Shown: positions 7,630 to 49,461, counted from the stretch's first letter. The stretch is DNA of 64,000 bases from Gammaproteobacteria bacterium (GCA_965221955.1 CBDCTA010000018.1:192001-256000), one strand, 5' to 3'. The notes: generated from the letters alone by a model not told the origin. Made by a program: numbers and translations.

Positions 7630-7657
7630 ATGTCTGCTAACGACCCAAAGCGGACAT
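7630..7657. repeat. 28-bp imperfect palindrome (dispersed family, copy 1)
   Basis: ATGTCTGCTAACGACCCAAAGCGGACAT; its reverse complement differs from 49351-49378 at 5 of 28 positions. Confidence 0.7.
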
Positions 7658-7726
7658 GCTTATATTATTTTAGTAGCTGCGACATTTATGCAACATTGCT
7701 ATGGATTAAGATACTAGGAGTATTTC

Positions 7727-8407
7727 ATGCAATCCTATTCAGAGTTAATAGCAAAGGCTCTTGACAATCTTAAGCACATTAAATTTTATCGAAGAAATAT
7801 ATACCAGCTCTACATGGTGTGTTTATACTGCACGATACTAGAGCTTTCTGAAACACTAATTTTTCTTACAAAGAATAAGAAAGGTGTGGGAATACCAATT
7901 TTGAGCCGTACATTACTTGAAGCGTATGTGGACTTAAAAAATTTAGAGCTAAATCCAGATTATTGCTACAGCATGGACGCAAGCAATATCAAAGAGTGGT
8001 TGAGAATAGCAACAGAAGCCGGAACTCTTGAAAATGATTATCTAAGAAAGTTAGCGGATCATGAAGATTTAAATGATCAAATCACTGAGTGGAAGAAAGA
8101 ACTAGAGCAACTAAGTCAAAATGGCCATCAAGTTTTAAATCAACTTGAAAAATTTCGTAATGTCGAGATGCAGGAGGAATATCGATCTATTTATAATTTT
8201 TTGTGCTGCGAAACTCACAACAATATTAGGTCGTTACAAAAACGACACATACAATTCATCAATGATGAGGCTGATTTTAAAGTGGTCGCATTTACTGAAT
8301 TTATAAGTAACGAAGATGATAGTTATTTAAATATATGCCAAGAGCTCCTTGAAGAAGCGTGCAAGGCAATCCATAGTACTTTCAAAACTGGCAGATGGAA
8401 TGATTAA
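7727..8407 (+). CDS. hypothetical protein, DUF5677-like helical island protein
   Basis: AGGAG RBS, 226 aa, motifs RTLLEAYVDL and YRSIYNFLCCETHN; adjacent to the tRNA 3' end. Confidence 0.55.
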   Translation: MQSYSELIAKALDNLKHIKFYRRNIYQLYMVCLYCTILELSETLIFLTKNKKGVGIPILSRTLLEAYVDLKNLELNPDYCYSMDASNIKEWLRIATEAGTLENDYLRKLADHEDLNDQITEWKKELEQLSQNGHQVLNQLEKFRNVEMQEEYRSIYNFLCCETHNNIRSLQKRHIQFINDEADFKVVAFTEFISNEDDSYLNICQELLEEACKAIHSTFKTGRWND

Positions 8408-8530
8408 TAAATAGTAAAAAGCAGACATATATAAGTGTTAAAGTACTAAATAGCTTCTAAACGATAATATATGCAGGAATTGTGCAGGAACATAAGTTTC
8501 CACACCCTAAAAATTAGTCTAATAATTATA

Positions 8531-8543
8531 TAACTTATTGATT
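8531..8543 (-). promoter_or_regulatory. IHF-consensus site beside the tRNA-Met 3' end (att-like)
   Basis: Minus strand AATCAATAAGTTA matches WATCAANNNNTTR. Confidence 0.5.
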
Positions 8544-8547
8544 ATTA

Positions 8548-8624
8548 TGGTGGCTATGGTTGGACTTGAACCAACGACCCCAGCATTATGAATGCTGTGC
8601 TCTAACCAGCTGAGCTACATAGCC
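8548..8624 (-). tRNA. tRNA-Met (CAT), elongator type
   Basis: GGCTATGTAGCTCAGCTGGTTAGAGCACAGCATTCATAATGCTGGGGTCGTTGGTTCAAGTCCAACCATAGCCACCA: cloverleaf, CAT anticodon, paired G1-C72, encoded CCA. Confidence 0.95.
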
Positions 8625-8691
8625 ATACATTAAGAACCGGATGGCGGACCTTATAAAACGACCCGCAAACTGTCAATTCTACCCAAAAGCT

Positions 8692-9783
8692 CTATACATT
8701 AAACCTAAAATGAACTACATCCGCTTCCTGCATCACATAATCTTTGCCCTCTAGTCGCCATTTGCCGACTTCTTTGGCACCTGCTTCTCCACCAGCGTCT
8801 ACATAATCCTGATATGCCACAACTTCAGCGCGTATAAATCCTTTTTCAAAGTCGGTGTGAATTTTACCAGCTGCTTGCGGCGCCGTAGCACCTTTTGAAA
8901 CCGTCCACGCACGCGCCTCTTTCGGCCCTGCAGTAAAAAAGGTTTGTAATCCCAATAATTCATAGCCGGCACGAATGACCCGATTCAATCCAGGCTCTTC
9001 TAAACCTAATTCGGCTAAATACTCTTTTTGTTCAGCATTATCCAATTGTGCAAGTTCTGCTTCAATTTGCGCGCAAACTGGAATGACTTGAACTGATCTC
9101 TTGCTAGCAAGCTCTTGTAATTTTGCAAGATGTTTATTATTTTCAAATCCATCTTCTGCAACATTTGCAATATAAAACGCAGGTTTAGCGGTTATTAAAT
9201 GCAGCTCGCGTAGTAGTGGTGCTTGTTCTTTACTAATTTCAAAACTAAATGCAACTTCTTCGTTTTCTAAATGCGCCTTTAACTTTTTATATAACTCTAC
9301 TTGTGCAATTGCCTCTTTATTTCCAGATTTTGCAACACGCTCTACTCTTGCAATGGCTTTTTCAACCGATTCTAAGTCAGCCAAAATAAGTTCTGTATAT
9401 ATCGTTTCAAGATCAGACAGTGGATCGATCTTTCCATCTACATGAATGATATTTTCGTCATCAAAACAACGTACTACATGCGCGATAGCATCCGTTTCAC
9501 GTATATGTCCTAAAAACTGGTTACCTAAACCTTCGCCTTTTGATGCACCAGCCACTAAACCTGCAATGTCTACGAACTCTATTGTTGTAGGGATAACCTC
9601 AGCAGAATTTGCGATTTTTGCTAATGTATCTAAACGCGGATCAGGAACAGGTACGATTCCCACATTAGGATCGATGGTGCAGAACGGGTAATTTTCTGCT
9701 GCGATTTCAGTTGCAGTTAATGCGTTAAATAAAGTCGATTTTCCAACGTTGGGTAAACCTACAATGCCACATTTAAACCCCAT
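8692..9783 (-). CDS. ychF: redox-regulated ATPase YchF
   Basis: [35 protein letters not shown]-terminal FRFNV. Confidence 0.97.
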
Positions 9784-9787
9784 TGCA

Positions 9788-10372
9788 TCAACCTTTTGTA
9801 TGCAGCTTCTTCATAGCAGATTCTAAGTTGCCTTCTACACATTCTTCTATACAGTTCATGGCATCAATGATCGCATTATCAATTTCAGCACGATCTTGTT
9901 GATTCACTCTTTTAAGCACGTAATTAACAACTTGGTCTTTATGCCCAGGATGCCCAACACCAATACGTAGGCGCCAAAAGTTTTTATTTATATGTGAAAA
10001 TATGCTGCGCAGACCATTGTGCCCTCCATGGCCACCCGACCATTTGATTTTGATTTCACCATTGGGAAGATCAATTTCGTCATGTGCAACTAATATTTGT
10101 TCGCTGGGAATTTTATAAAAATCACAAAATGGACGTAGCGACTCACCACTATCATTCATATAGGTCTGAGGTTTCAATAACCAGATTTTTTCACCCTGAC
10201 AAGTGAAATGCGCAACTTCACCTTTAAATTTAGCTTCGTGTTTAAATGTTGCGTGTTCTCTTTGAGCGAGTGTATCCACAAACCAAAACCCGGCGTTATG
10301 CCGGGTTTGTTCGTGTTTTTCACCTGGATTGCCTAGACCGACAATCAGGCGTATGCCTTTATGATTAGACAC
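9788..10372 (-). CDS. pth: peptidyl-tRNA hydrolase
   Basis: [25 protein letters not shown]. Confidence 0.97.
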
Positions 10373-10400
10373 CTAGGACATTAAAAAATAGGGGGATAAA

Positions 10401-11114
10401 TTACGAATCATCTCCTGATGATTTATCTTCAGCTTTATCGTCACCTTCTGCTTTAGTCTCTGCTTCGCCCTCTGCAGCTTCTTCACCTTCCGCAGCAGCA
10501 ACAGGCTCTTCTTCTTCAACCGCACGTTTAACATGCACAGAAACTACAACATGGTCATGACCTTCACCATGAGATAGTTCAACGATGGTTACACCTTCTG
10601 GTACTTTAACATCGCTTAAGTGAAGTGCTTCATTTAATTTTAGATCAGCAGTATCAACCTCGATAAATTCTGGTAAATCTTTTGGTAAACATGATATTTC
10701 AATCTCAACAATGTTGTGACTGATCGCACCACCTTCCATTTTCACACCGTGACAAGTGTCTTCATTTAAGAAGTGTAATGGCACGTGAACATTAATTGCA
10801 GTGTCTTCACGAACACGCAATAAATCCATATGCAAAACAGATGGCTTATAAGGGTGGCGCTGTAAGTCACGTAAAATTGCGCGCTGCGACTTACCTTCAA
10901 CATCTACATTTAAAATATGAGAATAAAATGCCTCTTGCTCCAAGCTGTGCATTAACGAGTCATGATCAAATGTAACCGAAACTGGATCTTCGCCACCGCC
11001 ATAAATAACAGCGGGCACTTTGCCCATACGGCGTAGTCGGCGACTTGCGCCCTTGCCTAACTGCGACCCGTCTCGCACTTCTGCATTTAATGTAAAATCG
11101 ACACTCATATTCAT
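10401..11114 (-). CDS. rplY: 50S ribosomal protein L25/Ctc
   Basis: [23 protein letters not shown]; lies between prs and pth. Confidence 0.96.
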
Positions 11115-11169
11115 CTACTCCAAACTTTCCCTAATTCTGTGCTATTTGCTACCCCTTAGCCCATATACC

Positions 11170-12144
11170 TTAATCCATATATAGGGTGCTCACAGATTCT
11201 TCTTGATTGATTCGACGCATGGATTCAGCCACCAAACCCGAGACTTCCACTTGACGGATCCGAGTGCAGTGTGCGGCTTCTTCGTGGAGCGGGATTGTAT
11301 CAGTTACCACCAATTCATCCAGCACAGAATTCTCAATATTTTCTACCGCCTTACCTGAAAGTACAGGGTGAGTGGCATAGGCTCTAACACTCTTTGCCCC
11401 ATGCTCTTTAAGCGCTCTAGCAGCTGCACATAAGGTACCCGCCGTATCGACTAAGTCATCAATGATGTAGCAGGATTTACCCTCAACCTCACCGATGATA
11501 TGCATGACTTCTGACTTATTCGCCTCAGGACGACGTTTATCGATAATCGCAAGATCTGCATCGTCTAATCGTTTTGCCAATGCACGAGCACGTACTACAC
11601 CACCCACATCCGGGGACACCACAATTAAGTCAGGGTCTTTACGTTTATACACATCACCCAACAAAATGGGTGAGGCGTAGATATTGTCAACAGGAATATC
11701 AAAAAAGCCTTGGATTTGATCAGCATGCAAATCAACCGTCAGCACGCGATCCGCTCCTGCAACCTGCAGCAGGTTGGCTATCACTTTGGCGGAGATGGGT
11801 ACTCTAATTGAGCGCACTCGACGATCTTGTCGCGAATAACCAAAATAAGGCATAACGGCTGTAATACGCTCCGCAGAAGAACGTTTTAACGCATCGATCA
11901 TAATCAACAATTCCATGACATTGTCATTAGTAGGCATACATGTAGGCTGCACCACAAAAACATCTTTGCCGCGTACATTTTCTTGAATCTCTACTTGCAC
12001 TTCGCCATCACTAAATTGACTAATAAATGCTTTACCAATTGGAATGTTTAAGTCATCGCAAATATTTTGCGCAAGTGTTGGATGCGCATTTCCAGAAAAC
12101 ACCATTAAGTTACTATCAGCAGGTAAGGTTCTTTGACCAATCAT
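11170..12144 (-). CDS. prs: ribose-phosphate pyrophosphokinase
   Basis: [35 protein letters not shown]. Confidence 0.97.
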
Positions 12145-12192
12145 AGTGTGTGCTGCCTTAACATTAAAAAGTCGAAAAGATAATTAATAATT

Positions 12193-12206
12193 TGGCTGGG
12201 CCGGCA
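12193..12206 (-). repeat. 14-bp direct repeat of the tRNA-Gln 3' end (att junction)
   Basis: Identical to 14253-14266. Confidence 0.85.
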
Positions 12207-12445
12207 TGCCTCATGCTATACCGGGACCTAGCTTTTTCAATTAGTTATCGGAAGCTCCAAGTCTGTTAACTGCTTCCTGATCCCATAAGTGTATTTTAAG
12301 TATTGTTAATAAAGTTGTGTATAGTATATCAGCGCTATTCTTTATTAAAACCAAACATTAAAAATTAAGCTAAATTCATTTCATTAGTAGTACCAAAAAT
12401 TGAAGAAATATTTTTCAGAAAAAGACTAGTGAACTATGAGATAAA

Positions 12446-13579
12446 TTATTGGAAAGGCTCACCAGCTTTTTCAAGCACTGCTTTTACAGCATCTACTATT
12501 TGTTCACAGTATCTTGAATTTAGATGAAAATATGTTGGCAGTAAACCTTCGCCTTCATACCGAAAAGTAATTGGTTTATCCGTTGTCCTATACTCTTGTA
12601 ATGTTACGCAATGAGGATCAATGTCTGGTTGTGTAGTATTTACACGAATGTGGGTAGCAAAGTGTGAAGCATTCATGTCTGGTATTTCGGCTAAAACTTC
12701 TTCCTTACTTGGTTGTGGCGAGTTATTCCAATTATGATCAACAGGCGGAATTAAATAGACTGCAGAGCGCTTATATTCTGCATCTGCATTTGGAGTTGCT
12801 GGAGGATCAGAGAAATCAAGTATCCTAATTACTAAGAAATCATTCCAATAATCTACTTTCTTAAAAATTGGTACTAATCCAATACCTTCTTCTGGTCTAT
12901 AAACATGATTAACATAAAGAATGTCAGTAATTTTTGTAATACGATTATTTTGCCTTATTGCTAATTCATATCCACCGCCAAATGCAAGCTGAGGTCCAAT
13001 GCCACTAATATCATAAAACCACATTCTTGCAGCAGTGGTAATTAAACGACTATACGACTTATTCCATTTATCCTCAGAAGTAAAACTAGATTCTATTTCT
13101 AATGTCTCCATTATAAAATCTTCTCCAGTTCCAGCAGCTACAGCATTTTCACCCCAAGGTGTAATGAATTTTTTTGAAGCACTTCCGAAATGTTTCAAGC
13201 TCCACCTATCATCATTTGCAATAACAGCAATTAATGAAACATCTTTTAAACCAAGATTATCAACACAAAGTAGTACAGAACTTAACTGCTCAAAATCTGT
13301 AGGATCAATTTCATTGTATTTTTTGCGAATAGCTTTAATTGCAGTTTTCGCTTCAATCAAACTTCCTGCCCATCCGATCATCATATGTGGGCCAATACTA
13401 TTTAGCTTCTGCTGGAAATCAGTAAAGTAGTGTGTATCCCATCTTATTGGTGTATCTACCGATTGTTGTCCTGAGACAGGTAAAGTTACATTTTTATTTG
13501 GTGGAATAGTTGAAGAGATCATAATATCCCCTAGAAGACAGGGAATATCATTATCAAGATAACCAACCACTACTGTCAT
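12446..13579 (-). CDS. proteasome-beta/HslV-like Ntn-hydrolase fold protein with C-terminal extension
   Basis: Met-Thr N-terminus; Asp at mature position 17; K58...G72 spacing equals proteasome K33-G47; AAGTG matches GSG; D...GGG-Y-E matches the D166/GG loop. Confidence 0.6.
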   Translation of the reverse strand: MTVVVGYLDNDIPCLLGDIMISSTIPPNKNVTLPVSGQQSVDTPIRWDTHYFTDFQQKLNSIGPHMMIGWAGSLIEAKTAIKAIRKKYNEIDPTDFEQLSSVLLCVDNLGLKDVSLIAVIANDDRWSLKHFGSASKKFITPWGENAVAAGTGEDFIMETLEIESSFTSEDKWNKSYSRLITTAARMWFYDISGIGPQLAFGGGYELAIRQNNRITKITDILYVNHVYRPEEGIGLVPIFKKVDYWNDFLVIRILDFSDPPATPNADAEYKRSAVYLIPPVDHNWNNSPQPSKEEVLAEIPDMNASHFATHIRVNTTQPDIDPHCVTLQEYRTTDKPITFRYEGEGLLPTYFHLNSRYCEQIVDAVKAVLEKAGEPFQ

Positions 13580-13601
13580 TTATATTAGAAGCCCTACTAA
13601 T

Positions 13602-14147
13602 CTAGCCAATTTTTATATCCCAACCAAACTCATAAACAGGATTATCGTTTTCATGAACACTTACAATCATTTGTCTTTTGAATTTTCCAGTTCCTTCATC
13701 AGCTTCCATTGCTGATGTTGTTTGTTTTACATCGAATTTTGGAAATCTATCTAGCATATTTAAATTAGACAGTTCTCTAAATATAGCTTCAAGACATAAA
13801 TCTAATTCGTCCCATGTAAATGTTTCTGATATTTCATGACCTACATCATTTCTTCGATCTCTCCATTTATCAATATCATCATAATCTTTTAGCAGGCTTT
13901 GATTATTTAATTCTTGAAGTCGATGAAATAATTTTGGGTTAGGATTTTCAATTGTTATGTTTTGATTTTTTATGTATTCAACCAATACTTTATCTAAAAA
14001 CGAAACACTTCTAATTAAAAGTCCAGATACAATTGCACTATCAAGTTCCGCGATTCTCATTCCATGGTTGTTATGCCCTATCCAGTAATAATTGCGGGCT
14101 ATAACCACATCTATTAGTAAATTGTTCCATTCTTTAGGAATATTCAT
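13602..14147 (-). CDS. HEPN-like protein (RX4H)
   Basis: Helical protein with R99-N-D-V-G-H104 after an amphipathic L-x-x-R-L-x-x-L helix; C-terminal beta-rich tail. Confidence 0.6.
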   Translation of the reverse strand: MNIPKEWNNLLIDVVIARNYYWIGHNNHGMRIAELDSAIVSGLLIRSVSFLDKVLVEYIKNQNITIENPNPKLFHRLQELNNQSLLKDYDDIDKWRDRRNDVGHEISETFTWDELDLCLEAIFRELSNLNMLDRFPKFDVKQTTSAMEADEGTGKFKRQMIVSVHENDNPVYEFGWDIKIG

Positions 14148-14252
14148 GCAGAATTTATGGAGTCTGCAGGGTGGGTATCACTGAATCCTGCGTTTCTTGC
14201 AGACTTCACTGTGGATAAGTCTAAAATCTTCAATAAAATCAATGAGTTATAG

Positions 14253-14327
14253 TGGCTGGGCCGGCAGGATTCGAACCTGCGAATGCCGGGATCAAAACCC
14301 GGTGCCTTACCACTTGGCGACGGCCCA
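14253..14327 (-). tRNA. tRNA-Gln (TTG)
   Basis: TGGGCCGTCGCCAAGTGGTAAGGCACCGGGTTTTGATCCCGGCATTCGCAGGTTCGAATCCTGCCGGCCCAGCCA; usual position after ispE. Confidence 0.97.
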
Positions 14328-14381
14328 ACGATTTGTTGCCCACAGAAATTTCCAAGGAGAAAATTTCTAAAAAGAAAAATC

Positions 14382-15251
14382 CTATGCGCAATTATACTCA
14401 CTTGGCAAAAAAGCAGGCGACTGATTTAAGCCTTTTACAACATAAGCCGCAAACTCTTTTGTACATTCTTTAGCGATATTGTCTGCTTGCTGTTTTGATG
14501 AACAACGTGCAAATAATGCACTCCCCGATCCTGTCAAACGCGGCGAAGCATACTGCATTAGCCATTGAAATGCTCGTTCCACTTCTGGCTGGCGACGCGC
14601 GATAGGCTCAAATACATTCTGAGTTTGATCCAAATCGGATAGCTTCTCACCTCTTAACGGCAAGAAGTCGCGTATTTTGAGCGGCGCGCAATTACGTGTC
14701 AAATCTGGATCAGCAAACATTTGCTGAGTATTCAAATGTACATTTGGATACACCACAATAAACCAAGATTCTTCTGTAGAAGCCGGTGTAAGCTGCTCGC
14801 CTATGCCTTCCACCCAACAAGACTGCCCGCGTATAAATACAGGCACATCCGCACCTAAGCACTCACCTATTTGCTCAAGCTCTGCTTGCTCTAGCCCACA
14901 ATTCCACATTTTATTAAGTGCCAATAAAGTAGTCGCAGCGTCTGAGCTACCCCCTCCCAATCCTGCACCGAGAGGAATGTTTTTCCTCACTTGTATCTCT
15001 ACACCTTGTTTTACTTCTAACTGATCTTGTAGCAGTAATGCTGCTTTTACACATAAATCATCTTGTGGCTGAATCGTTGCATTAGAGTTTTCACAACTTA
15101 TATTGGAATCCGAACGCAAACAAAACGTGAGCTGATCACATAGGTCTATCAGCTGAATTACACTTTGCAATAAATGGTAACCATCCTCTCGCTGCCCAAC
15201 GATGTGCAAAAAAAGATTTAACTTTGCAGGTGCAAGCCAGGTTTGCATCAC
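14382..15251 (-). CDS. ispE: 4-diphosphocytidyl-2-C-methyl-D-erythritol kinase
   Basis: APAKLNLFLHIVG, KNIPLGAGLGGGSSDAA, LTGSGS. Confidence 0.96.
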   Translation of the reverse strand: MMQTWLAPAKLNLFLHIVGQREDGYHLLQSVIQLIDLCDQLTFCLRSDSNISCENSNATIQPQDDLCVKAALLLQDQLEVKQGVEIQVRKNIPLGAGLGGGSSDAATTLLALNKMWNCGLEQAELEQIGECLGADVPVFIRGQSCWVEGIGEQLTPASTEESWFIVVYPNVHLNTQQMFADPDLTRNCAPLKIRDFLPLRGEKLSDLDQTQNVFEPIARRQPEVERAFQWLMQYASPRLTGSGSALFARCSSKQQADNIAKECTKEFAAYVVKGLNQSPAFLPSEYNCA

Positions 15252-15283
15252 AACATCAACTTTTCAAACTTATAGATTTAAAC

Positions 15284-34836: not shown

Positions 34837-35808
34837 TTGAGTGATTACCGCCCGTCTTGGCTTTACCGAAATGGGCATGCTAACACAATTGCTGCCTCTT
34901 CCCTTTTACGCAAAGCTTTTGCTTGGCGCATCAGTCAGCAGTTTCGCAAACAAAGCCAGTCGAAAATATTGTCATTAGATAATGATGTCCGCTTACAAGG
35001 CTTTTTCAACACACAAACAAACTCTGCAAATAAACCTTTAGCTTTAATACTGCATGGCTGGTTGGGTTGTGCGGGATCACTCTATTTATTACCTATTGCA
35101 AACCAACTATACGCAAAAGGCTTTAACGTCGTTCGCTTAAACTTTAGAGACCATGGTGGCACGCAACATTTAAATAAGGAGCTATTCCACTCTTGCCGCT
35201 TAGAAGAGGTATTGAATGCTACACAAACTATCCAACTTCAAGTGCCTCATTCAACTTTTTACATTATTGGATTTTCCTTAGGTGGTAACTTTGCGTTGCG
35301 GATTGGTACAGAAGCAGATAACAAGGGCCTAAATATTAATAAAATAATTTCTATCTGCCCTGTCATGAATGCCGCAAACGCATTGGCTGAAACTCAATCC
35401 ATGCCAAGTATTTATACAGAATATTATTTAAGACGTTGGAAAAATATGCTCAAAACTAAACACAAACTTTTCCCTGATGCTTACGACTTGGCTACTATCC
35501 AAAAACAATCCTCACTTACCAGCATGACTGAGCATCTGTTATTGCAATATACAAAATTTGATTCCGTTGCTCATTATTTACATGGCTACTCGATTACAGG
35601 AGAGCGCTTAAAAACGTTAAGCATTCATAGTGATGTCTATATTGCTGAAGATGACCCCGTAATTCCTTTCCATGATCATGAGAATCTATATGCTTCAGAA
35701 TTTCTTAACATTCATCTCACACAATTTGGTGGCCACTGTGGATATTTAGATGGACTATTTGATATGAATTGGATAGATAAACAAATCATCAAAAATCTAC
35801 AGGCATAA
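34837..35808 (+). CDS. YheT-family alpha/beta hydrolase
   Basis: LHGWLG, NFRDHG, GFSLGG nucleophile elbow, DDPVI, GGHCGY. Confidence 0.85.
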   Translation: MSDYRPSWLYRNGHANTIAASSLLRKAFAWRISQQFRKQSQSKILSLDNDVRLQGFFNTQTNSANKPLALILHGWLGCAGSLYLLPIANQLYAKGFNVVRLNFRDHGGTQHLNKELFHSCRLEEVLNATQTIQLQVPHSTFYIIGFSLGGNFALRIGTEADNKGLNINKIISICPVMNAANALAETQSMPSIYTEYYLRRWKNMLKTKHKLFPDAYDLATIQKQSSLTSMTEHLLLQYTKFDSVAHYLHGYSITGERLKTLSIHSDVYIAEDDPVIPFHDHENLYASEFLNIHLTQFGGHCGYLDGLFDMNWIDKQIIKNLQA

Positions 35809-40425: not shown

Positions 40426-40444
40426 ATCCTTTTTAGAATAGCAT

Positions 40445-41320: not shown

Positions 41321-41324
41321 CAAA

Positions 41325-42518: not shown

Positions 42519-42661
42519 AGCTTAGTATTTTTTTATTTTTAATTAGAAAAACGCGAAAGCGAATTCTGCTTAAGCAGAACACTCATTGCAAGATTATTTA
42601 TTAATAAGGTTAAGGAACCAGGTCTGTCCAGATTTACGGATTTTAAAGAGAAGTAATCTTG

Positions 42662-43225
42662 CTAACGGAAAGTTAGCGTTAAACCTGCACTTCCATAACG
42701 AGAATTGCTTCTTCGCGGTAATTTGCAACTTTGCGTTCTCGAGCGATTTGCATTACTCCAGCGCAACTTACCACCTGAGTATTTGCTGTAATGCTTATGA
42801 TGCTTGTTTCTAAAACCATGATGACCATAGCCAAACCGGTAAGCAGGATAGTACACACGGCTGGATCGCTCTTCTTCTTGATTCAAATAGACAACGTGTG
42901 GAACTAGAGCAGCTTGTGCTTGTTTTAACGCAGCTTTTTGTTTGACCTTTTCAAGCTGTAATTTTTTACGCTCTAAACGCTCTTCTCGCATGCGTGCCCA
43001 TTGATTCGTGATCGAATAGTAATTTTCCTTGTAGTCAGAATCAGAATAAACATTTGAAACATCTATTTGATTGGTACTAATAGGATTATTTAATGGCGCT
43101 TGATCTGAATAATGCGTCACGCCATTTTCATCCACCCACTTGTGTATAGTGCCTGCATGTACAACCGATAGCGTTATCCAGAATAACGTTACAAGTAATA
43201 AGGGTATGTACTTAAACATATTCAT
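42662..43225 (-). CDS. DUF4124 domain exported protein
   Basis: Signal peptide, then IHKWVDENGVTHYSDQAP. Confidence 0.85.
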   Translation of the reverse strand: MNMFKYIPLLLVTLFWITLSVVHAGTIHKWVDENGVTHYSDQAPLNNPISTNQIDVSNVYSDSDYKENYYSITNQWARMREERLERKKLQLEKVKQKAALKQAQAALVPHVVYLNQEEERSSRVYYPAYRFGYGHHGFRNKHHKHYSKYSGGKLRWSNANRSRTQSCKLPRRSNSRYGSAGLTLTFR

Positions 43226-43283
43226 ACTTATAGGACTGTAGCGCCTCAGCTTGGTTCTGTCATGTTAGAACCTACGAACAAGC

Positions 43284-43508
43284 TTACTCTTTAATGATTT
43301 GCCACCCGTCAAGATCCATAGGGGCAGAATGAGTCTCTAATTGATCCCAAATCGTATAACCCGTATGCTGCTCATAGACTGCAATTGCCGCTTCTTCAGC
43401 AGTAGAAAATGTTAGAGTAGGCAAATTATCCACCCACAAATCCCATAAACCTAAGGGTTCTTTTTGTATTTCAAATGTAGATGCATCTGTTTCTAATTTA
43501 TACTTCAT
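43284..43508 (-). CDS. hypothetical protein
   Basis: 74-aa Trp-rich ORF in an intergenic slot. Confidence 0.6.
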   Translation of the reverse strand: MKYKLETDASTFEIQKEPLGLWDLWVDNLPTLTFSTAEEAAIAVYEQHTGYTIWDQLETHSAPMDLDGWQIIKE

Positions 43509-43543
43509 AAATAAAGTATAACGTAATTTTTTATTTAAATATT

Positions 43544-43903
43544 ATGTCGACCGCTAACTTTTTCTTTCACGGACTATTCCCAGACTGTATTGAAGCCGAT
43601 GAAGATACAGGTAGACAAATATGTAAAGTTTTATTTGATGTAGATTTTGAAGGTGAATTCCATTCCCATTTGTTAGCCGACCTTTGGCCTATAGAAGAAG
43701 GAGACGGTATACCCACTTTTGAAGTCCGCTACGATCTGCCTTTCAATTGTGACGACTTTTCTAAAACCGCTGTGCAATATTATCAACAAGTGATGGGGCC
43801 ACAATCCACCACCATCAGCCATAGCGGCCCAAAAGGAATGAATCCAAGAAATAATGTATTTCGCGCACAATGGCAAATCGCTCTCGAAGCTAGTAAAAAA
43901 TAA
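43544..43903 (+). CDS. hypothetical protein
   Basis: 119-aa acidic ORF directly upstream of ptrB. Confidence 0.65.
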   Translation: MSTANFFFHGLFPDCIEADEDTGRQICKVLFDVDFEGEFHSHLLADLWPIEEGDGIPTFEVRYDLPFNCDDFSKTAVQYYQQVMGPQSTTISHSGPKGMNPRNNVFRAQWQIALEASKK

Positions 43904-43910
43904 TTCCTCT

Positions 43911-46025
43911 ATGAACTCAAACCTCAAAGCATTATATGCTGAGGCACCGATTGCGCAAAAGAAAAAATCTGCAATTACGCAACACGGATACACACGCATT
44001 GATGATTATGCATGGCTGAAAGACGAGAACTGGCAGCAAGTTATTCAAACTCCCGAGGTGCTCTCACAAGAAATCAAAGACTATCTAGTGGCTGAAAATG
44101 AATATTTAGCACAATGCATGGGCGATACTGAAATTCTACAAAAAAAATTATTTACCGAACTACGAGCAAGAATTAAAGAAGACGATAGCAGCGTTCCTGA
44201 AAAAGATGGTGATTATTTTTATTACGATCGTTACGAGGAAAACCAACAGTATCCAATTTATTGTCGTTATCATAAAGACAATCCTGAACACGAAGAAATT
44301 CTACTAAACGCAAATCTTGCAGCTAAAGGTTTTGACTACTTTGATATTGGCGATGCAGGACACAGCCCAGACCACAAATACTTTGCGTACAGTGCTGATA
44401 TTAAAGGTTCTGAGTTTTACACACTTTATATTATCAATTTAGAAACAGGAGAATTACTCAAAGACCAAATAAGGAATATACAAAGTGTTTTTGTATGGGC
44501 AATGGATAACCGTACGCTTTTTTACACCACACTTGATGACAATCATCGCCCAGACAAAGTTTATCGTCATACACTAGGTGAGAATATTTTTGATGATGAA
44601 ATGTTATACGAGGAGAAAGATTCAGGTTTTTTTGTCTCATTGGATATCACTGAATCCAACCGCTTTATTTTGATCTCTGCACATGATCACGTCACTACTG
44701 AAATACATATCATTGATGCATTTAATCCTAAACAAGCTGCAAAATGTTTTTCCAAACGCCAAGTGGGTGTTGAATACGAAATTACTGATCGTGATGGCAC
44801 ATTTTTTATTGTTACCAATAAGGACGGCGCTGAAGATTACAAAATCATGCAAACCGATCTACAGCAAACCGAACATAGCCATTGGCAAGATGCATATGTT
44901 CCGGAAACTGGAACACTACTACGTGGTATTTACTTATTTAAAGGCTACTTGATCCGTTCAGAGCGCATTAATGGTTTGCCTAGAATCGTAATTGTTCAAT
45001 TTCAAGATAATAAATTTGGTCAAGAATATTGTATTAATTTCGATGAAGAGGCTTATGAATTAAATATCATTCCAGGCTATGAATATGACACGCACATGCT
45101 TAGGTTTTCGTATACCTCAATGACAACACCTACACAAATTTATGACTATGAGATGTCAACGCGTGAGCGAACCTTAAAAAAACAACAAGAAGTTCCTAGT
45201 GGCCATCATCCGGCCGATTACACTACACGCAGACTTTTTGCCACTACAGATGATAATAAAGAAGTACCGATTTCATTACTCTATAAAAATACTACACCAT
45301 TGAATAGCACTGCACCTATGTTGTTATACGCATATGGTTCTTATGGCAGTTCAATGCCCGCTAGTTTTTCAACCAATCGCTTAAGTTTAGTCGATCGCGG
45401 ATTTATTTATGCCATTGCACATGTTCGCGGCGGTATGGAAAAAGGCTATGCATGGTATAAACATGGAAAACTAGAATACAAAACCAATACCTTCAAAGAT
45501 TACATCACTTGCGCAAACTATCTTGTTGAAAACAATTTTACTCAAGCGGGTAATATTGTCGTTCATGGCGGCTCAGCTGGAGGCATGTTGGTCGGGGCGG
45601 TATTAAACATGAATCCCACTTTATTTTATGCGGCAATTGCAGATGTACCTTTTGTAGATGTACTCAACACCATGAGTGACGATAGTCTACCCCTTACTCC
45701 TCCTGAGTGGCCTGAATGGGGCAATCCTATAACGAATAAGTCTGACTACGATAATATTTCTCAATACTCTCCTTACGATAATGTTTCTGAACAAGACTAT
45801 CCCCATATATTAGTGACCGCAGGACTTACAGATCCACGCGTAACGTACTGGGAACCTGCTAAATGGGTGGCTAAACTTCGTGTACATAAAACCGACAATA
45901 ATTTGTTGTTATTAAAAATGAACATGAGTGCAGGACACGCAGGGGCATCAGGACGCTTTGATTACTTAAAAGAGGTTGCATTAATGTATGCATTCATTCT
46001 CAAGGTATTCAATATGACAAGCTAA
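43911..46025 (+). CDS. ptrB: oligopeptidase B (S9 family)
   Basis: DDYAWL, YGSYG, HVRGG, GGSAGG, DPRV, AGHAG. Confidence 0.93.
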   Translation: MNSNLKALYAEAPIAQKKKSAITQHGYTRIDDYAWLKDENWQQVIQTPEVLSQEIKDYLVAENEYLAQCMGDTEILQKKLFTELRARIKEDDSSVPEKDGDYFYYDRYEENQQYPIYCRYHKDNPEHEEILLNANLAAKGFDYFDIGDAGHSPDHKYFAYSADIKGSEFYTLYIINLETGELLKDQIRNIQSVFVWAMDNRTLFYTTLDDNHRPDKVYRHTLGENIFDDEMLYEEKDSGFFVSLDITESNRFILISAHDHVTTEIHIIDAFNPKQAAKCFSKRQVGVEYEITDRDGTFFIVTNKDGAEDYKIMQTDLQQTEHSHWQDAYVPETGTLLRGIYLFKGYLIRSERINGLPRIVIVQFQDNKFGQEYCINFDEEAYELNIIPGYEYDTHMLRFSYTSMTTPTQIYDYEMSTRERTLKKQQEVPSGHHPADYTTRRLFATTDDNKEVPISLLYKNTTPLNSTAPMLLYAYGSYGSSMPASFSTNRLSLVDRGFIYAIAHVRGGMEKGYAWYKHGKLEYKTNTFKDYITCANYLVENNFTQAGNIVVHGGSAGGMLVGAVLNMNPTLFYAAIADVPFVDVLNTMSDDSLPLTPPEWPEWGNPITNKSDYDNISQYSPYDNVSEQDYPHILVTAGLTDPRVTYWEPAKWVAKLRVHKTDNNLLLLKMNMSAGHAGASGRFDYLKEVALMYAFILKVFNMTS

Positions 46026-46053
46026 GGGGTTTTATAGTATCGTTATGGGCTAG

Positions 46054-46078
46054 AGCACCAGATATTGGTGCTTTTTTA
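46054..46078 (+). terminator. intrinsic terminator after ptrB
   Basis: AGCACCA-GATAT-TGGTGCT followed by a T tract. Confidence 0.6.
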
Positions 46079-46136
46079 ATCACACACTGTACAGCCTCTA
46101 CAAAGAACGCTAACCAGAAAACAAGCGGAAATAACA

Positions 46137-46352
46137 ATGGTTGAAGAAAATTTAATTCGACGCGATGAAGACACAGGTTATATCATCGCATGGAAATTAA
46201 AGTATGATTTCGAGACAGGGAAGTTAACAGATAACACCATGACCTATGGCGAAGCTCGTAAAAAGTGTGCTGAACTGAATGCTGAAAACTCTGAAAAAAC
46301 ATTCTGGCCAGAAAAAGTGAAGCCTGCACCAGAGTGGCATATCATTTACTAA
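46137..46352 (+). CDS. hypothetical protein
   Basis: 71-aa ORF with an upstream GGA RBS-like sequence. Confidence 0.6.
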   Translation: MVEENLIRRDEDTGYIIAWKLKYDFETGKLTDNTMTYGEARKKCAELNAENSEKTFWPEKVKPAPEWHIIY

Positions 46353-46353
46353 A

Positions 46354-46405
46354 CGCTCAAGTAAAGTTGAGCGATATCTACTGACTTCTCAAGTAGAGTT
46401 GAGAA
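46354..46405. repeat. two tandem related hairpins (REP-like or terminator)
   Basis: CGCTCAA-GTAAAG-TTGAGCG and TTCTCAA-GTAGAG-TTGAGAA, 32-bp period. Confidence 0.6.
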
Positions 46406-46428
46406 AGACCCAAAAGTATATTGTCGAC

Positions 46429-47076
46429 TTAAGGCGAGAGTCGTTCTATTTTCCAATCCGATGAAATTCTTATGTAGCGCAATCTATCGTGTAGTCGATT
46501 GGGCCTGCCCTGCCAAAATTCAAACAAATTAGGAATGACACGATACCCACCCCAATGCTCGGGATATGGAACTACTGTATTCTCATATTGCTGTTCCAAC
46601 TTCTCATATTCATCTTCAAGTACTTTATAACTATCTATTACAGCACTTTGATGAGAAGCAATTGCACCAATCTGACTCCCCCTTGGTCTTGAATGAAAGT
46701 ATTCTTTTGATTCTTGTTTTGACACTTTTTCTACGTGCCCTTGGATGCGTACTTGCCTATAGAGTTTATCCCACCAAAAAGTTAAAGCGGCTTTATTAGA
46801 GCTCGCTAAATCATGTGCTTTACTACTTTTATAGTTAGTGAAAAACACAAAACCTTGTTCATCATAACTTTTGAGCAATACCATCCGCGCAGAAACATCT
46901 CCCTTTTTATTTACTGTAGCAATATTCACTGCGTTTGGTTCCATTAAATCCGCATCAGATACCTCACTAAACCAGTCCGCAAATAATTTAAATGGGTTCT
47001 TATCTACGTCTTTTTCAGACAAGGTTCTTGATTCATAATGCTGACGCATATTTTTAACATTAGTATCCTGACTCAT
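46429..47076 (-). CDS. pdxH: pyridoxamine 5'-phosphate oxidase
   Basis: RMVLLK, FFTNYKSSK, YFHSRPRGSQ, EFWQGRPNRLHDR. Confidence 0.96.
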   Translation of the reverse strand: MSQDTNVKNMRQHYESRTLSEKDVDKNPFKLFADWFSEVSDADLMEPNAVNIATVNKKGDVSARMVLLKSYDEQGFVFFTNYKSSKAHDLASSNKAALTFWWDKLYRQVRIQGHVEKVSKQESKEYFHSRPRGSQIGAIASHQSAVIDSYKVLEDEYEKLEQQYENTVVPYPEHWGGYRVIPNLFEFWQGRPNRLHDRLRYIRISSDWKIERLSP

Positions 47077-47093
47077 AGCACTTCCTTGTTTAA

Positions 47094-47726
47094 TTAACTA
47101 AACGCAACCCCTATACCCCCTAGCCCACAGTAGCCATTAGGGTTTTTAGCAAGATATTGCTGATGATAATCTTCAGCATAATAAAATTCGGGCGCATCAA
47201 TGATTTCCGTTGTAATCGCCCCATATCCTTGCTTGGTCAATACGTCTTGGTAAGTGTGCTTAGTTTGCTCTGCGATTTGTTTCTGTTCTTCGCTATAGGT
47301 GTAAATACCAGAACGATACTGCGTACCCACATCGTTACCTTGCTGCATTCCTTGTGTAGGGTTATGCGACTCCCAAAACACTTTTAGTAATTCTTTGTAG
47401 CGAATCACCTCAGGATCAAATACCACACGTACCATTTCATTATGCCCAGTCAATCCCGTACACACTTCTTCATAGGTAGCATTTGGCGTGAAGCCCCCTG
47501 CATAGCCCACTGATGTAGAAAACACACCTCGAAGTTGCCAAAACTTGCGCTCCGCTCCCCAAAAGCAACCCATTCCAAACATGGCTATCTCAAGCCCTTC
47601 AGGGAAAGGAGGCAGCAAAGAATTTCGATTGACGTAATGTTGATTTGAAACTTGCATTGCCTCGGCACGGCCTGGCAAAGCATCTTGCCTAGATGGCATT
47701 AACGTTTTTTTATTTGTGAATAACAT
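47094..47726 (-). CDS. msrA: peptide methionine sulfoxide reductase A
   Basis: [27 protein letters not shown]. Confidence 0.97.
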
Positions 47727-47892
47727 AGTGTTAATTTCTCAAACTACCATACATAAACCTTAATCTAAACGGATTGTACAATGCAAAATAGATAACGGCT
47801 TTCAGCAGTCTTAGCGTGAGCAAATTAAGCAAATATTCAGAAAAAGAGATTTAGCAGATATTTAATAAAACGCCAGGACTTCTGGTTTTAAA

Positions 47893-47920
47893 ATGACCGC
47901 TTTCAGCCGAAAACGGTCAT
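47893..47920. repeat. 28-bp imperfect palindrome (copy 2)
   Basis: ATGACCGCTTTCAGCCGAAAACGGTCAT. Confidence 0.6.
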
Positions 47921-47985
47921 AATTCTTTATTGGATACTATAAAATTCGCCATAAATTAATACTTACTTGGGTAAACTTTCTACCG

Positions 47986-48945
47986 TTAGCTATCAATAGT
48001 AATTGGACTTTCAAAGTTATCTGGTTTGATTGCTAAAACAGAGCAATCCAACTGATTAAGAATGTTCTCAGCAGTGTTGCCTATCAATAATCCTGGAACA
48101 CCAGCACGACCTACAGTTCCCATTACTACAAGCTCTGCACCGATTTCTTTTGTAACCTTCGGTACTATTTTTTTTGCATTGCCTTGCACGAGATGAAGCT
48201 GTGGTTTAAGAAAATTCATAGTTTCTTCACCGTATAAATTACAAGACTTCTCAACTACATCCGTTAACCATTGTGTACGAATCGCCTTCTCATGATTAAC
48301 CATTTCATCTACTTCTGAATCTGTGTAAGACATATGCGGACCACGTAGGTAGCTCTCATAAGGTAAATTCCATACATGTATGACATGCAACTCTCCAAAA
48401 TCAGCTAATGCCAGTGATATGGACAGTTCTAATAGTCGCTGATTGAGAGCTTCGTTATCCATATTTTCATGTTGATAATCCAGTGCGACAAGAATCTCTT
48501 TTTCACCTATTTGTTGGGTTGATTTTATTATCCACACTGGGCATGGGCATTTTCGTAGCAGCTTCATTTCTGAAGCACTGAATAAATAACGAACTACAGA
48601 AGAAGTATTTTTGACAGTTTTAATAATCAAATCACCATCATTCCTAATTACTTCACGTATGATCTCAACAAACGGTCTCCCAGTCAGCACCTTGGTATTA
48701 ATTATAACCCCGGAGTTTTTTATTCCTTTCACAAGCAACTCTAGCTGTTCTTGTCTCTGTTTAGTGAGTATAGGTACAAGCTCATTGTTGCGACCACTTT
48801 TCTGATCAACGCTTGACATATACACAGTCCCAATTACAGTAAGCTTCGCTTGATGAACTTTTGCTAAAGCGACAGCTTGTTCAAATGCCGAGGAGTTATC
48901 AAGCTCTTCCTCTAAGACGAAAATAATATTTGAAAATTTAACCAT
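47986..48945 (-). CDS. tandem-domain universal stress protein (UspE-like)
   Basis: LLRKCPCPVW, VMGTVGRAGVPGLLIGNTAE, SVLAIKP. Confidence 0.9.
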   Translation of the reverse strand: MVKFSNIIFVLEEELDNSSAFEQAVALAKVHQAKLTVIGTVYMSSVDQKSGRNNELVPILTKQRQEQLELLVKGIKNSGVIINTKVLTGRPFVEIIREVIRNDGDLIIKTVKNTSSVVRYLFSASEMKLLRKCPCPVWIIKSTQQIGEKEILVALDYQHENMDNEALNQRLLELSISLALADFGELHVIHVWNLPYESYLRGPHMSYTDSEVDEMVNHEKAIRTQWLTDVVEKSCNLYGEETMNFLKPQLHLVQGNAKKIVPKVTKEIGAELVVMGTVGRAGVPGLLIGNTAENILNQLDCSVLAIKPDNFESPITIDS

Positions 48946-49036
48946 TTCACCACCTATCGAAAATATTTTTAATAAAACTTAAAAAAATAAAAATCCAGAT
49001 CACAAAGTCACTGTAATATAGCTAGGACTCCAATAA

Positions 49037-49050
49037 CTGATCTGGCTCAA
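49037..49050 (-). promoter_or_regulatory. candidate FNR/Anr box upstream of the usp gene
   Basis: TTGAG-CCAG-ATCAG has 2 mismatches to TTGAT-N4-ATCAA; a TACAGT -10-like hexamer lies at class II spacing. Confidence 0.4.
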
Positions 49051-49350
49051 GTAAGTAACCGTTTTAATATTCGTTTTTAACTGCGCAAATCTTCAGTTTT
49101 TTCGAATCGTAACTCGCCGTTTTAACGACAAGTAATTAATTAAATTAAATGACTGATTAATAAATAAGACATTTATTGGAAAGTGATTGATTGCTCAAAA
49201 CTTGAAAAGTTATGAAACAAAATGCATTTGAATTGTTGCAAACAACAGTCATCTAAGTGATTGCTGTTTCAGTTGTATTCAAATAAGCAATAGAAGCAAG
49301 TCCGCTTATTTTTTTATTAAGTTTGTTAAGTGTTGTAATACTTAACCCTA

Positions 49351-49378
49351 ATGTCCACTATGGGTTGTAAGCAGATAT
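49351..49378. repeat. 28-bp imperfect palindrome (copy 3)
   Basis: ATGTCCACTATGGGTTGTAAGCAGATAT. Confidence 0.65.
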
Positions 49379-49433
49379 TTTGAATGTTTGAATTGAAGTT
49401 TCCTACCTGATTTTCCCCTCAGTAGTTTGAATT

Positions 49434-49461
49434 ATGGTTGTTTTAGATCAAAAGCGGAAAT
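49434..49461. repeat. degenerate 28-bp palindrome (copy 4)
   Basis: ATGGTTGTTTTAGATCAAAAGCGGAAAT aligns without gaps to the family. Confidence 0.4.

Follow-up and report, generated by a model that had tools for sequence, protein, structure and literature searches.

REP elements, BIMEs and REPINs, for example the BIMEs of E. coli and the REPINs of Pseudomonas, are short, extragenic, high-copy imperfect palindromes of 20–40 bp, and REPINs are defined in the cited parts of two studies as inverted REP doublets (PMC3337134, PMC3116915). In the sections of Di Nocera et al. (2013; PMC3733652) drawn on here, the large CGTC super-family of REPs is reported without a dedicated transposase, the GTAG REPs of S. 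maltophilia and P. syringae are described as confined to core regions, REPs are placed mostly downstream of genes, where they are plausibly transcribed, and the dRS3 repeats of Neisseria are equated with CGTC-1.

Integron arrays and CALINs are rows of small, co-oriented accessory genes with a hairpin-forming site after each gene; the genes are gained, lost and re-ordered at these sites, and arrays occur without an adjoining integrase. The attC sites carry R″ and R′ end boxes of the form RYYYAAC ... GTTRRRY. As reported in the cited sections of Cury et al. (2016; PMC4889954), CALINs are frequent, with IntI missing from the host genome in half of the cases, and Alphaproteobacteria have no integrons.

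The repeat family described here was recognised in a 64,000-nt stretch of a gammaproteobacterial contig (the window). The sequence-only reading had listed four 28-mers, and these are present at 7630, 47893, 49351 and 49434, scoring 41.7, 34.2, 26.7 and 13.8 bits on a strand-symmetric position matrix derived from this genome's own 28-mer copies, where about 0.1 matches per 64 kb are expected by chance. That reading was also correct that five of the 28 positions distinguish copy 1 from copy 3 and that the arms of copy 2 read ATGACCG...CGGTCAT; the consensus it gave recovers only copy 1 when up to three mismatches are allowed. There are no further full copies in the window, where the next best score is 2.3 bits, so the claim that none lies between core operon genes holds there.

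Across the genome, 194 sites score at least 8 bits, against 2–7 for five column-permuted matrices and 3.6 for a Markov null. At 10 bits or more, 189 sites remain in 2.69 Mb and the null gives 0. Although the genome is 88.6% coding, 176 of the 189 are intergenic; 176 have a neighbour within 3 kb (random mean 63, maximum 85, in 200 simulations), and 118 fall in 11 clusters that are arrays of small co-oriented genes. Four of the approximately 189 copies fall in the window. These are peripheral, partly decayed family members, and the arrays and A′-spacer-B doublets that define the family are found on other contigs.

Two types of site can be distinguished by their position relative to genes. B sites, with the consensus ATGWCYGCT-AACGACCCAA-AGCGGACAT, precede start codons, and A sites, which are near reverse complements of B with the core TTCGGCCAAT, follow stop codons. 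A stop and a start flank 76 of 98 B sites, with a median distance of 31 nt to the start, and among 88 A sites, 72 are turned towards a stop, which lies a median of 12 nt away. The two types are often paired as doublets of 87–111 nt in total with gaps of 31, 43–45 or 54–55 nt, and in 30 of 38 cases the order is A′-spacer-B. In arrays, such a doublet pairs the A′ site closing one cassette with the B site opening the following one, and separates the two.

Each 28-mer can be drawn as a 9-bp stem with a 10-nt loop or as 11-bp arms with a 6-nt loop, and the arms are unequally conserved. The doublet may fold as one long imperfect hairpin; for attC sites a single imperfect hairpin of about 57–141 nt is expected. 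In Lysobacter soli the doublet is predicted to form a single hairpin (−24 and −22.6 kcal/mol; z −4.65 and −4.29), and the AT-rich doublets of this family adopt the same predicted fold only weakly (z −1.6 to +0.8). An A:A arm mismatch stands in 52 of 96 B sites and compensatory change is scarce, so the folded form is putative. A run of at least five T in the 8 nt after the hairpin was seen at only 20 of 99 B and 10 of 90 A′ sites, a rarity that rules out simple intrinsic terminators, the alternative raised when the palindromes were first noticed. An Rfam search of three arrays gave no match to the repeats, only a tRNA.

Copy 1 (7630..7657, plus strand; 41.7 bits) is a B-type site, ATGTCTGCT-AACGACCCAA-AGCGGACAT, with a core identical to the B consensus and a predicted DNA hairpin of −5.6 kcal/mol (z −3.96). 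It lies 69 nt upstream of the start of a DUF5677 gene (7727..8407, plus strand; Pfam PF18928, E 8e-18) for which no DNA match at E ≤ 1e-20 was found in five relatives. The half-site AAAGCAGACAT (8418..8428, plus strand; 16.3 bits on the half-site matrix), 10 nt past the DUF5677 stop, is probably what is left of an A-type site's right arm. A tRNA-Met gene predicted by ARAGORN (8548..8624, minus strand) follows, and an island specific to this genome has its right border at the 3′ end of this gene. The window contains the right part of the island (1..8547); the whole measures 15.4 kb (contig C18:185112-200547, by blastn against L050) and encodes a two-component system, HPP, SCO1, COX1/COX2-like proteins, cytochrome c and Rrf2. 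The island is absent from relative G011, where its flanks are 58 bp apart, and the relatives' synteny resumes at window position 8548. A 13-site array in relative G014 begins at the same tRNA-Met end. At the island edge, next to tRNA-Met, copy 1 opens a DUF5677 cassette.

The other three copies lie in a 2,047-bp insert that separates msrA from the next gene (47738..49784), which is missing at the orthologous site in G011 and G014, where the gap is 44 bp. The cargo is a tandem universal stress protein gene, usp (47986..48945, minus strand; Pfam PF00582, E 1.5e-33). Copy 2 (47893..47920, minus strand; 34.2 bits) is an A-type site 65 nt past the usp stop on the coding strand, with a hairpin of −8.4 kcal/mol (z −5.14), and homology to L223 stops exactly at its outer edge. 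Another locus in G014 carries a usp copy that is 78% identical and laid out as B-usp-A′, and copy 2 is homologous to the A′ site there. Upstream of usp is a doublet, of which copy 4 (49434..49461, minus strand; 13.8 bits), a strongly decayed A-type site, is the first member and copy 3 (49351..49378, minus strand; 26.7 bits), a decayed B-type site reading ATATCTGCTTACAACCCATAGTGGACAT on the reverse complement, the second. The 55-nt spacer between them (49379..49433, minus strand) has one of the three standard doublet gaps and carries the family's GG(T)AGGAAAC motif. The best reading of the window is of one cassette, DUF5677 at the tRNA-Met island edge, and one usp unit with an upstream doublet and a downstream A′ site.

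Half-sites scoring at least 13 bits number eight in the window, whereas permuted half-site matrices give 1.9 on average and at most 7. The half or decayed copies that had been proposed fared unevenly: those near 8420 (16.3 bits) and 49298 are recovered, the latter as an orphan half-site TAAGCGGACTT on the minus strand (49298..49308; 13.5 bits, half-site matrix), the one near 47851 falls below threshold, that near 12268 is unsupported, and the one near 2430 is a possible decayed copy recognised by eye (2428..2455), with a 1-nt deletion and without a score on the ungapped matrix. One further half-site, at 34985, is inside a gene and probably arose by chance.

In two pairs of co-assembled strain-variant contigs (C14/C23 and C10/C29) and one duplicated cassette (C5/C11), all 16 internal alignment ends are within 40 nt of a site. 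The variants differ by whole cassettes: C14 carries a site, a 1,034-bp cassette and a second site where C23 has a single hybrid site, and a site-bounded replacement exchanges 11 kb for 1.5 kb. Relatives differ similarly. Between RDD and lptG, site-bounded genes occupy 0 kb in G019, 2.9 kb in G010, 6.1 kb in G014, and about 5 and 13 kb in the two variants of this genome, and the order of two cassettes is swapped between G014 and G011. The hot spots are the tRNA-Met 3′ end, the RDD/lptG gap and the interval between msrA and the next gene. The early suggestions that the palindromes bracket accessory genes and that they coincide with gene presence/absence breakpoints were thus borne out. The array cargo is integron-like, comprising GNAT, glyoxalase, OsmC, SnoaL/DUF4440 and Sel1 proteins and many genes of unknown function.

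Wherever copies of one cassette are compared, their homology continues into both flanking sites, and because all sites are alike, the exact mobile unit cannot be read off. Inferred crossover positions vary between junctions, with no fixed place within the site, a pattern that homologous recombination fits equally well. Some duplicated stretches in the assembly do not end at a site, and no excision product was seen.

The exact 28-mer pattern was found in at least 131 stretches from several proteobacterial classes and others, with carriers including Lysobacter, Noviluteimonas, Dyella, Pseudomonas, Sphingomicrobium, Sphingomonas, Phenylobacterium, Burkholderiales and Nitrospinaceae, and it is constant letter for letter across hosts of 38% to 65% G+C. 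The array design recurs as well in Lysobacter, Dyella, Sphingomicrobium and further Proteobacteria, and the doublet and cassette layout of L. soli (65% G+C) is alike. A Sphingomicrobium MAG has a 31-site array in which all 25 sites of at least 20 bits are co-oriented, and in 12 Sphingomicrobium cases the distance from site to ATG is 24–26 nt. A plasmid of Pantoea vagans carries a related doublet family, placed after genes.

A co-occurring recombinase or RAYT/HUH gene had been suggested, but RAYT, IntI and IS110 do not accompany the repeats, and no recombinase acting on the 28-mers was identified. IntI (TIGR02249) has no match over the cut-off in this genome and exceeds it in 6 of 41 relatives, among which only G015 bears repeats (1 of 20 repeat-bearing genomes); G013 has IntI and 0 repeats, and IntI is present in the only genus member lacking repeats. 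Among cultured or isolate carriers IntI was found in 0 of 5, in a weak search whose control matched nowhere. No site of at least 8 bits was found at the six IntI loci (1.5–20 kb around each), including the G013 and G015 integrons (18–20 kb). RAYT genes (PF01797, Y1_Tnp) were not found in this genome (96.6% complete) or in G010, G014 and G019; Y1_Tnp occurs in 3 of 20 repeat-bearing genomes vs 12 of 21 without repeats, and a repeat adjoins none of six Y1_Tnp loci. For IS110 the count is 0 of 5, and for a large serine recombinase 5 of 20. Integrases adjoining arrays are only 21–25% identical to one another. The complete genome G010 encodes only XerC, XerD and one island integrase, and complete genomes with 63–197 pattern matches (counted on both strands) have only XerC, XerD and unrelated island integrases. 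That xerD lies close by in this genus reflects the RDD/lptG hot spot; no such proximity was seen in G019 or L. soli.

The 28-mers share with REPs not only their general character but also pairing as inverted variants with a conserved spacer (31–55 nt) and the capacity of the doublet to fold as one hairpin, and with the CGTC super-family, as described in the cited sections of PMC3733652, the lack of a linked transposase. They could be an ordinary selfish repeat of the REP/BIME/REPIN kind whose transposase is lost or unrecognised, the doublets gathering in tolerant accessory DNA and serving as passive homology for RecA-dependent or illegitimate rearrangement; the differing crossover points, the Pantoea vagans doublets and the reported inverted doublets and transposase-less CGTC repeats would all agree with this. 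We nevertheless regard it as unlikely. Free insertion would not give such narrow distances to start and stop codons, copies are nearly absent from core intergenic DNA, with all four in the window adjoining variable genes, in contrast to the reported core-restricted GTAG REPs, the 28-mer is unchanged across hosts of very different G+C content and several classes, RAYT is missing from this genome, G010, G014 and G019, and none of six RAYT loci is flanked by the repeat. By comparison with the GTAG and CGTC REPs of the same cited sections, the 28-mers have neither an unpaired tag nor a CCA tail, with the (C/T)GTC letters inside the paired arm. The text and Table 1 of PMC3733652 give CGTC repeats a stem of 8–9 bp, which the 9-bp stem starting with AT seen here fits, and a loop of 4–5 nt, against 10 nt (or 6 nt with 11-bp arms) here. 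What further distinguishes the 28-mers from REPs is their place in accessory arrays, strict codon polarity, identity across classes and the coming and going of whole genes. The dRS3/NIME clusters of Neisseria are likewise bounded by a short conserved inverted repeat, but NIME units are non-coding repeats where the 28-mer arrays contain genes. The dRS3 arm, ATTCCCGC, may resemble the 28-mer arm ATGTCCGC.

The co-oriented, promoter-poor small genes, the hairpin-forming separators and the cargo would also suit true attC sites, left as CALINs by IntI activity, and the reported abundance of CALINs in IntI-less genomes (PMC4889954, cited sections) adds to this. Yet IntI rarely co-occurs with the repeats and no palindromes surround the IntI genes, so the sites are probably distinct from attC, as originally proposed, and a CALIN origin is very improbable. 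Inspection of doublets shows no AAC...GTT end boxes in either orientation: their two termini read ATGTCCGC / GCGGACAT whichever strand is taken, and GTT-like and AAC-like triplets occur in the inner cores only, in the wrong order. Nothing like an attI platform, with its divergent integrase and promoter, was seen at the arrays, and the sites, unlike attC, are conserved in sequence, consist of two 28-bp palindromes also found singly, and are abundant in Alphaproteobacteria, the class reported without integrons (PMC4889954, in the sections cited). Another explanation acts at the RNA level, with the B hairpin as a 5′ stabiliser or translation element and A′ as a 3′ stabiliser or processing site, both travelling with mobile genes. 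The close, fixed spacing to start and stop codons, as in the 12 Sphingomicrobium cases, and the gene-downstream, plausibly transcribed REPs of PMC3733652 (cited sections) speak for it; the lack of T-runs and of Rfam matches in the three arrays speaks against it, and it leaves the structural-variant breaks at sites and the cross-class conservation of the loop unexplained, making it improbable. It is compatible with the cassette reading preferred here. The dif/pdif sites of XerC/XerD on Acinetobacter plasmids have a similar 28-bp 11-6-11 geometry with unequally conserved arms and flank genes in roughly inverted orientation, whereas the 28-mers form chromosomal arrays at many hot spots; we know of no sequence likeness between the 28-mers and dif.

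The 28-mers are therefore best read as having the architecture of REP doublets and the role of attC sites, and they probably act in a mobile gene-cassette system as both cassette boundaries and recombination sites. A cassette would comprise one small accessory gene, sometimes a few, with a B site about 25–30 nt before it and an A site about 12 nt past the stop. Recombination inside the sites or along their edges would insert, delete, replace or re-order cassettes in a small number of chromosomal hot spots. We infer site-specific exchange by a sequence-specific enzyme acting in trans; RecA working on about 28 bp of conserved homology could serve instead. More tentatively, the sites may be the attC-equivalents of a second, integrase-independent cassette system in Proteobacteria. 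Its enzyme would be neither IntI nor RAYT, would be encoded away from the arrays and would recognise the 28-bp site, the core would set compatibility classes A and B, and single-gene cassettes would move in and out of arrays at hot spots and islands, with Alpha-, Beta- and Gammaproteobacteria, including lineages reported as integron-free, sharing one cassette pool.

If the cassette reading is right, a sizeable fraction of the small accessory genes in these marine gammaproteobacteria, and likewise in soil Xanthomonadales-type and sphingomonad genomes, would travel as hairpin-bounded cassettes without an integron, broadening the known modes of single-gene shuffling in bacteria. It would also account for islands of 'orphan' genes at tRNA genes and within housekeeping operons, and a single 28-mer would provide a sequence flag by which such cassette genes could be found in metagenomes.

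The four 28 bp palindromes reported in the sequence-only reading are all present in the window, at 7630–7657, 47893–47920, 49351–49378 and 49434–49461 (copies 1 to 4), and the consensus typed there, with up to three mismatches allowed, finds copy 1 alone. The half-site AAGCGGACAT occurs 95 times in the 2.69 Mb genome from which the window is taken (G000), against about 4 expected. A strand-symmetric position matrix, built from the genome's own 28-mer copies, detected 189 sites genome-wide at 10 bits or more, compared to 0 in a Markov null, and 194 sites at 8 bits or more, compared to 2–7 with column-permuted matrices. Copies 1 to 4 score 41.7, 34.2, 26.7 and 13.8 bits, and the matrix scan found no further full copy in the 64 kb window, all else scoring 2.3 bits or less. 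The additional half copies proposed from the sequence fared unevenly: those at 8418–8428 and 49298 were recovered by a half-site matrix, and the remaining ones were weak or visible by eye only. Site copy counts are slightly inflated, because the assembly combines two co-binned strain variants, seen as contig pairs that are 94–99.8% identical (C14/C23, C10/C29, C1/C25, C3/C19, C6/C24, C8/C18 and C12/C13); the contamination estimate is 4.3%. Self-comparison of the genome also revealed perfect or near-perfect tandem repeats in C22:1–1926 and C29:662144–663592, with periods of about 339 and 294 bp.

Two site types are distinguished by their 10 nt core. Type B, ATG(A/T)C(C/T)GCT-AACGACCCAA-AGCGGACAT, is represented by 99 copies, and type A, ATGTC(C/T)GCT-TTCGGCCAAT-AGCGG(A/T)CAT, which is approximately the reverse complement of type B, by 90 copies. 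The arm AGCGGACAT is far better conserved than the opposite arm, and a recurrent A:A mismatch occupies positions 4/25 of type B (52 of 96 copies). The compensatory arm change is weak, with AT pairs at 4/25 in 6 cases against about 3 expected.

The sites are placed far from randomly with respect to genes. In a genome that is 88.6% coding, 176 of the 189 sites are intergenic, and 176 of 189 have a neighbour within 3 kb (random mean 63, maximum 85); 118 are grouped in 11 clusters. Read on the coding strand, 76 of 98 B sites have a stop before them and a start after them, the start being a median of 31 nt away, and A sites face a stop codon in 72 of 88 cases, at a median distance of 12 nt. Most close pairs (30/38) are arranged as A′-spacer-B doublets, A′ being an A-type site behind a gene stop, and the two sites of a doublet are 31, about 45 or 55 nt apart. 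The resulting arrays are single-strand rows of small genes parted by a doublet or a lone site, as found at L048:3296–7056 in the relative G014 and on contig C23 of G000 (L008:3826–16304). Their cargo includes GNAT, OsmC, globin, Hsp20, M48 and M23 peptidases and Sel1/TPR proteins, as well as many genes to which no family was assigned. In G014, a gene for a 1,707 aa Rhs-repeat protein lies 1.6 kb past the cassette array at tRNA-Met (L048:8693–13816), and the small genes of that array could include some for immunity-type proteins.

Another composite element, about 117 bp long, consists of a full palindrome, then about 60 nt containing GCAACATCCTTGTTGC and TTCGCCCATCCATGG, then a half palindrome. 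It occurs at L008:16277–16392 (contig C23), C10:3651–3768, C29:132262–132378, C29:609583–609697 and C17:16414–16536, and both ends of the C23 array carry it as mutually inverted copies. One of its pieces, CATATTCGCGCAT.C.TG.ACTTAC, occurs in the 44 bp empty msrA site of the relatives G011 and G014, and the composite may represent a landing site.

Copy 1, of type B, lies 69 nt 5′ of a DUF5677 gene, and the right-arm remnant at 8418–8428 lies 10 nt past the stop of the same gene. This unit abuts the 3′ end of tRNA-Met, the same end at which a 13-site cassette array starts in G014. The window left of 8548 is part of a 15.4 kb island (C18:185112–200547) that is absent in G011, which has 58 bp between the two flanks, and that showed no DNA match in five relatives. 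The island genes specify a PAS histidine kinase, a LuxR-type regulator, an HPP protein, SCO1, COX1/COX2-like subunits, cytochrome c and an Rrf2 regulator; together they may form a nitric-oxide or oxygen-reductase module. Copies 2 to 4 are inside a 2,047 bp insert (47738–49784) that separates msrA from the next gene; the corresponding gap in G011 and G014 is 44 bp, and five other relatives have different inserts of 0.9–2.6 kb. The usp gene of this insert and its downstream A′ site are 78% identical to a unit elsewhere in G014, laid out B-usp-A′, and the outer edge of copy 2 is precisely where the homology stops. A decayed A′-spacer-B doublet 5′ of usp is made up of copies 4 and 3 and a 55 nt spacer.

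Several loci are present in the assembly as two strain variants, which are useful for tracing recent structural change. The two variants C14 and C23 are 99% identical over xerD-RDD...lptG, and a stretch of C14 composed of a site, 1,034 bp and another site corresponds to a single site in C23; at position 19 this single site agrees with the left C14 copy, and at positions 25–26 with the right one. Elsewhere, 11 kb of C23 cassettes correspond to 1.5 kb in C14, with both ends of the replacement within sites and, at one end, the 10 nt core inverted between the contigs. Contigs C10 and C29 have 1.4 and 4.0 kb, respectively, between two sites, and a 358 bp cassette is duplicated in C5 and C11, the unlike flanks beginning at the outer edges of its sites. 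In these three contig pairs, all 16 internal alignment ends fall no more than 40 nt from a site. The remaining duplicated stretches in the assembly involve no sites and mostly end at contig ends. The order of two cassettes is swapped between G014 and G011, and the gap between RDD and lptG, a hot spot, holds 0 kb of site-bounded genes in G019, 2.9 kb in G010, 6.1 kb in G014, and about 5 and 13 kb in the two G000 variants. Genes of the C23 array recur singly elsewhere in other genomes, with or without sites. Among assembled contigs aligned to this array, many joints end on palindromes with a shorter side of 22–38 letters, which is no evidence of excision since the short sides may be other repeat copies. 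Behind RDD, about 100 nt of non-coding DNA (CCATGGATGGCGGAAGTGCAG...GTTGCCGAGGAGCAA) is conserved between G000 and G010 (L008:3650–3760 and L230:10400–10500); it has no Rfam match and may encode a small RNA or belong to the hot-spot structure.

Integron attC sites or CALINs were rejected on the absence of IntI, missing end boxes and genuine IntI loci without repeats. IntI exceeded the cut-off in 6 of 41 relatives, of which only G015 bears the repeat, and no sites were found near the IntI genes at the 6 loci. True integron integrases are encoded at G013:C20:40615–41559 (L021, L202) and G015:C29:7056–7997 (L017, L201); G013 has an integron and is the sole genus member without the palindrome family. 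AAC/GTT end boxes are a defining feature of attC, and inspection of the doublet ends found none. In use, the sites behave like the attC sites of integron arrays. Passages of one survey report integrons to be missing from Alphaproteobacteria (PMC4889954), where this repeat, in contrast, is abundant. Terminators were also rejected, as the hairpins are not followed by T-runs, and an Rfam search of three arrays gave no match for the sites, finding only a tRNA.

The cassette idea put forward from the sequence is supported, in that the sites bound variable genes and coincide with structural breakpoints. The support does not extend to its enzyme part; searches of the carriers and of array neighbourhoods found no cognate recombinase. 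A RAYT-driven REP system was rejected: the Y1 transposase (RAYT) occurs in 3 of 20 carriers, Y1_Tnp is absent from the four carriers G000, G010, G014 and G019, and repeats accompany 0 of 6 Y1_Tnp loci. IS110 was discarded at 0 of 5 genomes. A large serine recombinase was rejected on its presence in only 5 of 20 carriers (544–551 aa in G000, G010, G011 and G019; 496 and 528 aa in G038) and its absence from G001, G002, G004, G014, G015 and others; one homologue is encoded some 4 kb away from a Sphingomicrobium array. Island (P4-type) integrases occur near arrays of three genomes, but at only 21–25% identity to each other they do not represent a single cognate enzyme. One array lies close to xerD on account of the genus-specific RDD–lptG hot spot, a site that is empty in G019, and the Lysobacter soli arrays are not adjacent to xerD. 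Genes common to G000 and the array neighbourhoods of Lysobacter, Dyella, Noviluteimonas and Sphingomicrobium are housekeeping genes only, plus the serine recombinase.

In anatomy the doublets are similar to REP doublets, also known as BIMEs or REPINs, which passages of PMC3337134 and PMC3116915 describe as inverted pairs of REPs that flank a spacer. In L. soli, the doublet forms a single long imperfect hairpin (−24 kcal/mol, z −4.65); the AT-rich doublets of the G000 family adopt this fold only weakly. Di Nocera et al. (PMC3733652) describe a CGTC super-family, which has no dedicated transposase, as carrying an unpaired tag and a CCA tail, with 8–9 bp stems beginning with AT and 4–5 nt loops. 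Set against that paper's text and Table 1, the present sites have (C/T)GTC within the stem, a loop of 10 nt and no tail. In the literature searched, no paper prints 13–15-letter pieces of the site, although the catalogue consensus sequences of PMC3733652 may bear on prior listing; 10-mer matches were to unrelated primers, and among the REP, REPIN and integron papers found, none described REP-bounded gene cassette arrays. A passive REP family, the main rival explanation, would share this anatomy but is rather unlikely. In the account of PMC3733652, two species have their abundant GTAG repeats confined to core regions, the reverse of the placement here.

On balance, the 28-mers probably bound cassettes and serve as their recombination sites, in a system built from REP-type doublets. 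They may be acted on in trans by a factor from an unbinned replicon. The complete genome G010, with 129 pattern matches on both strands, has XerD, XerC and one 411 aa integrase as its only integrases. RecA may instead act on the conserved homology, roughly 28 bp for a site and as much as about 100 bp for a doublet; RecA-dependent exchange needs at least roughly 25 bp. The inferred crossover points have no single fixed position within the site, and the data therefore fit site-specific and homologous exchange alike.

Of the other genus members, 13 of 14 bear the pattern, as do 18 of 24 members of the family and, more widely in the class, 1 of 16 other families, and a backward control pattern gave zero matches in the same genome set. 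When one genome per species was scanned, at least 131 stretches bore the pattern. The matches listed include Lysobacter soli, Noviluteimonas, Dyella, Pseudomonas, a Solemya symbiont, Thiotrichales, Sphingomicrobium, Sphingomonas, Allosphingosinicella, Croceibacterium, Phenylobacterium, Caulobacteraceae, Burkholderiales, Nitrospinaceae and one Mycobacterium-labelled MAG. Plasmid and phage collections yielded one Pantoea plasmid match and no phage match. On that Pantoea vagans plasmid (L239; NZ_CP028350.1, 491575–499605), a related palindrome lies 83 nt 5′ of a fosA-like fosfomycin-resistance gene, and three neighbouring genes are each trailed by related doublets with 11–12 nt spacers, which suggests a sister repeat family in Erwiniaceae.

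A half palindrome is directly at the 3′ end of tRNA-Gly, mid-array, in G019 (L208:10531–10628), an L. soli array starts 1 kb after tRNA-Phe, and a Sphingomonas MAG has an array within a tRNA-Ser island, adjoining the island integrase. In L. soli (65% G+C), the same doublets, with a 31 nt spacer, are found between co-oriented genes, most starts being 22–58 nt 3′ of B and A′ lying 5–37 nt past most stops. A Sphingomicrobium MAG carries a 31-site array in 13 kb, in which all 25 sites of at least 20 bits are co-oriented, and at four loci of this MAG an ATG is found 24–26 nt past the site in 12 cases. The cargo of these genomes includes glyoxalase, SnoaL/DUF4440, OmdA and DUFs, and no cassette gene was found in common between them and G000; it is therefore the site that is conserved, not the cargo.
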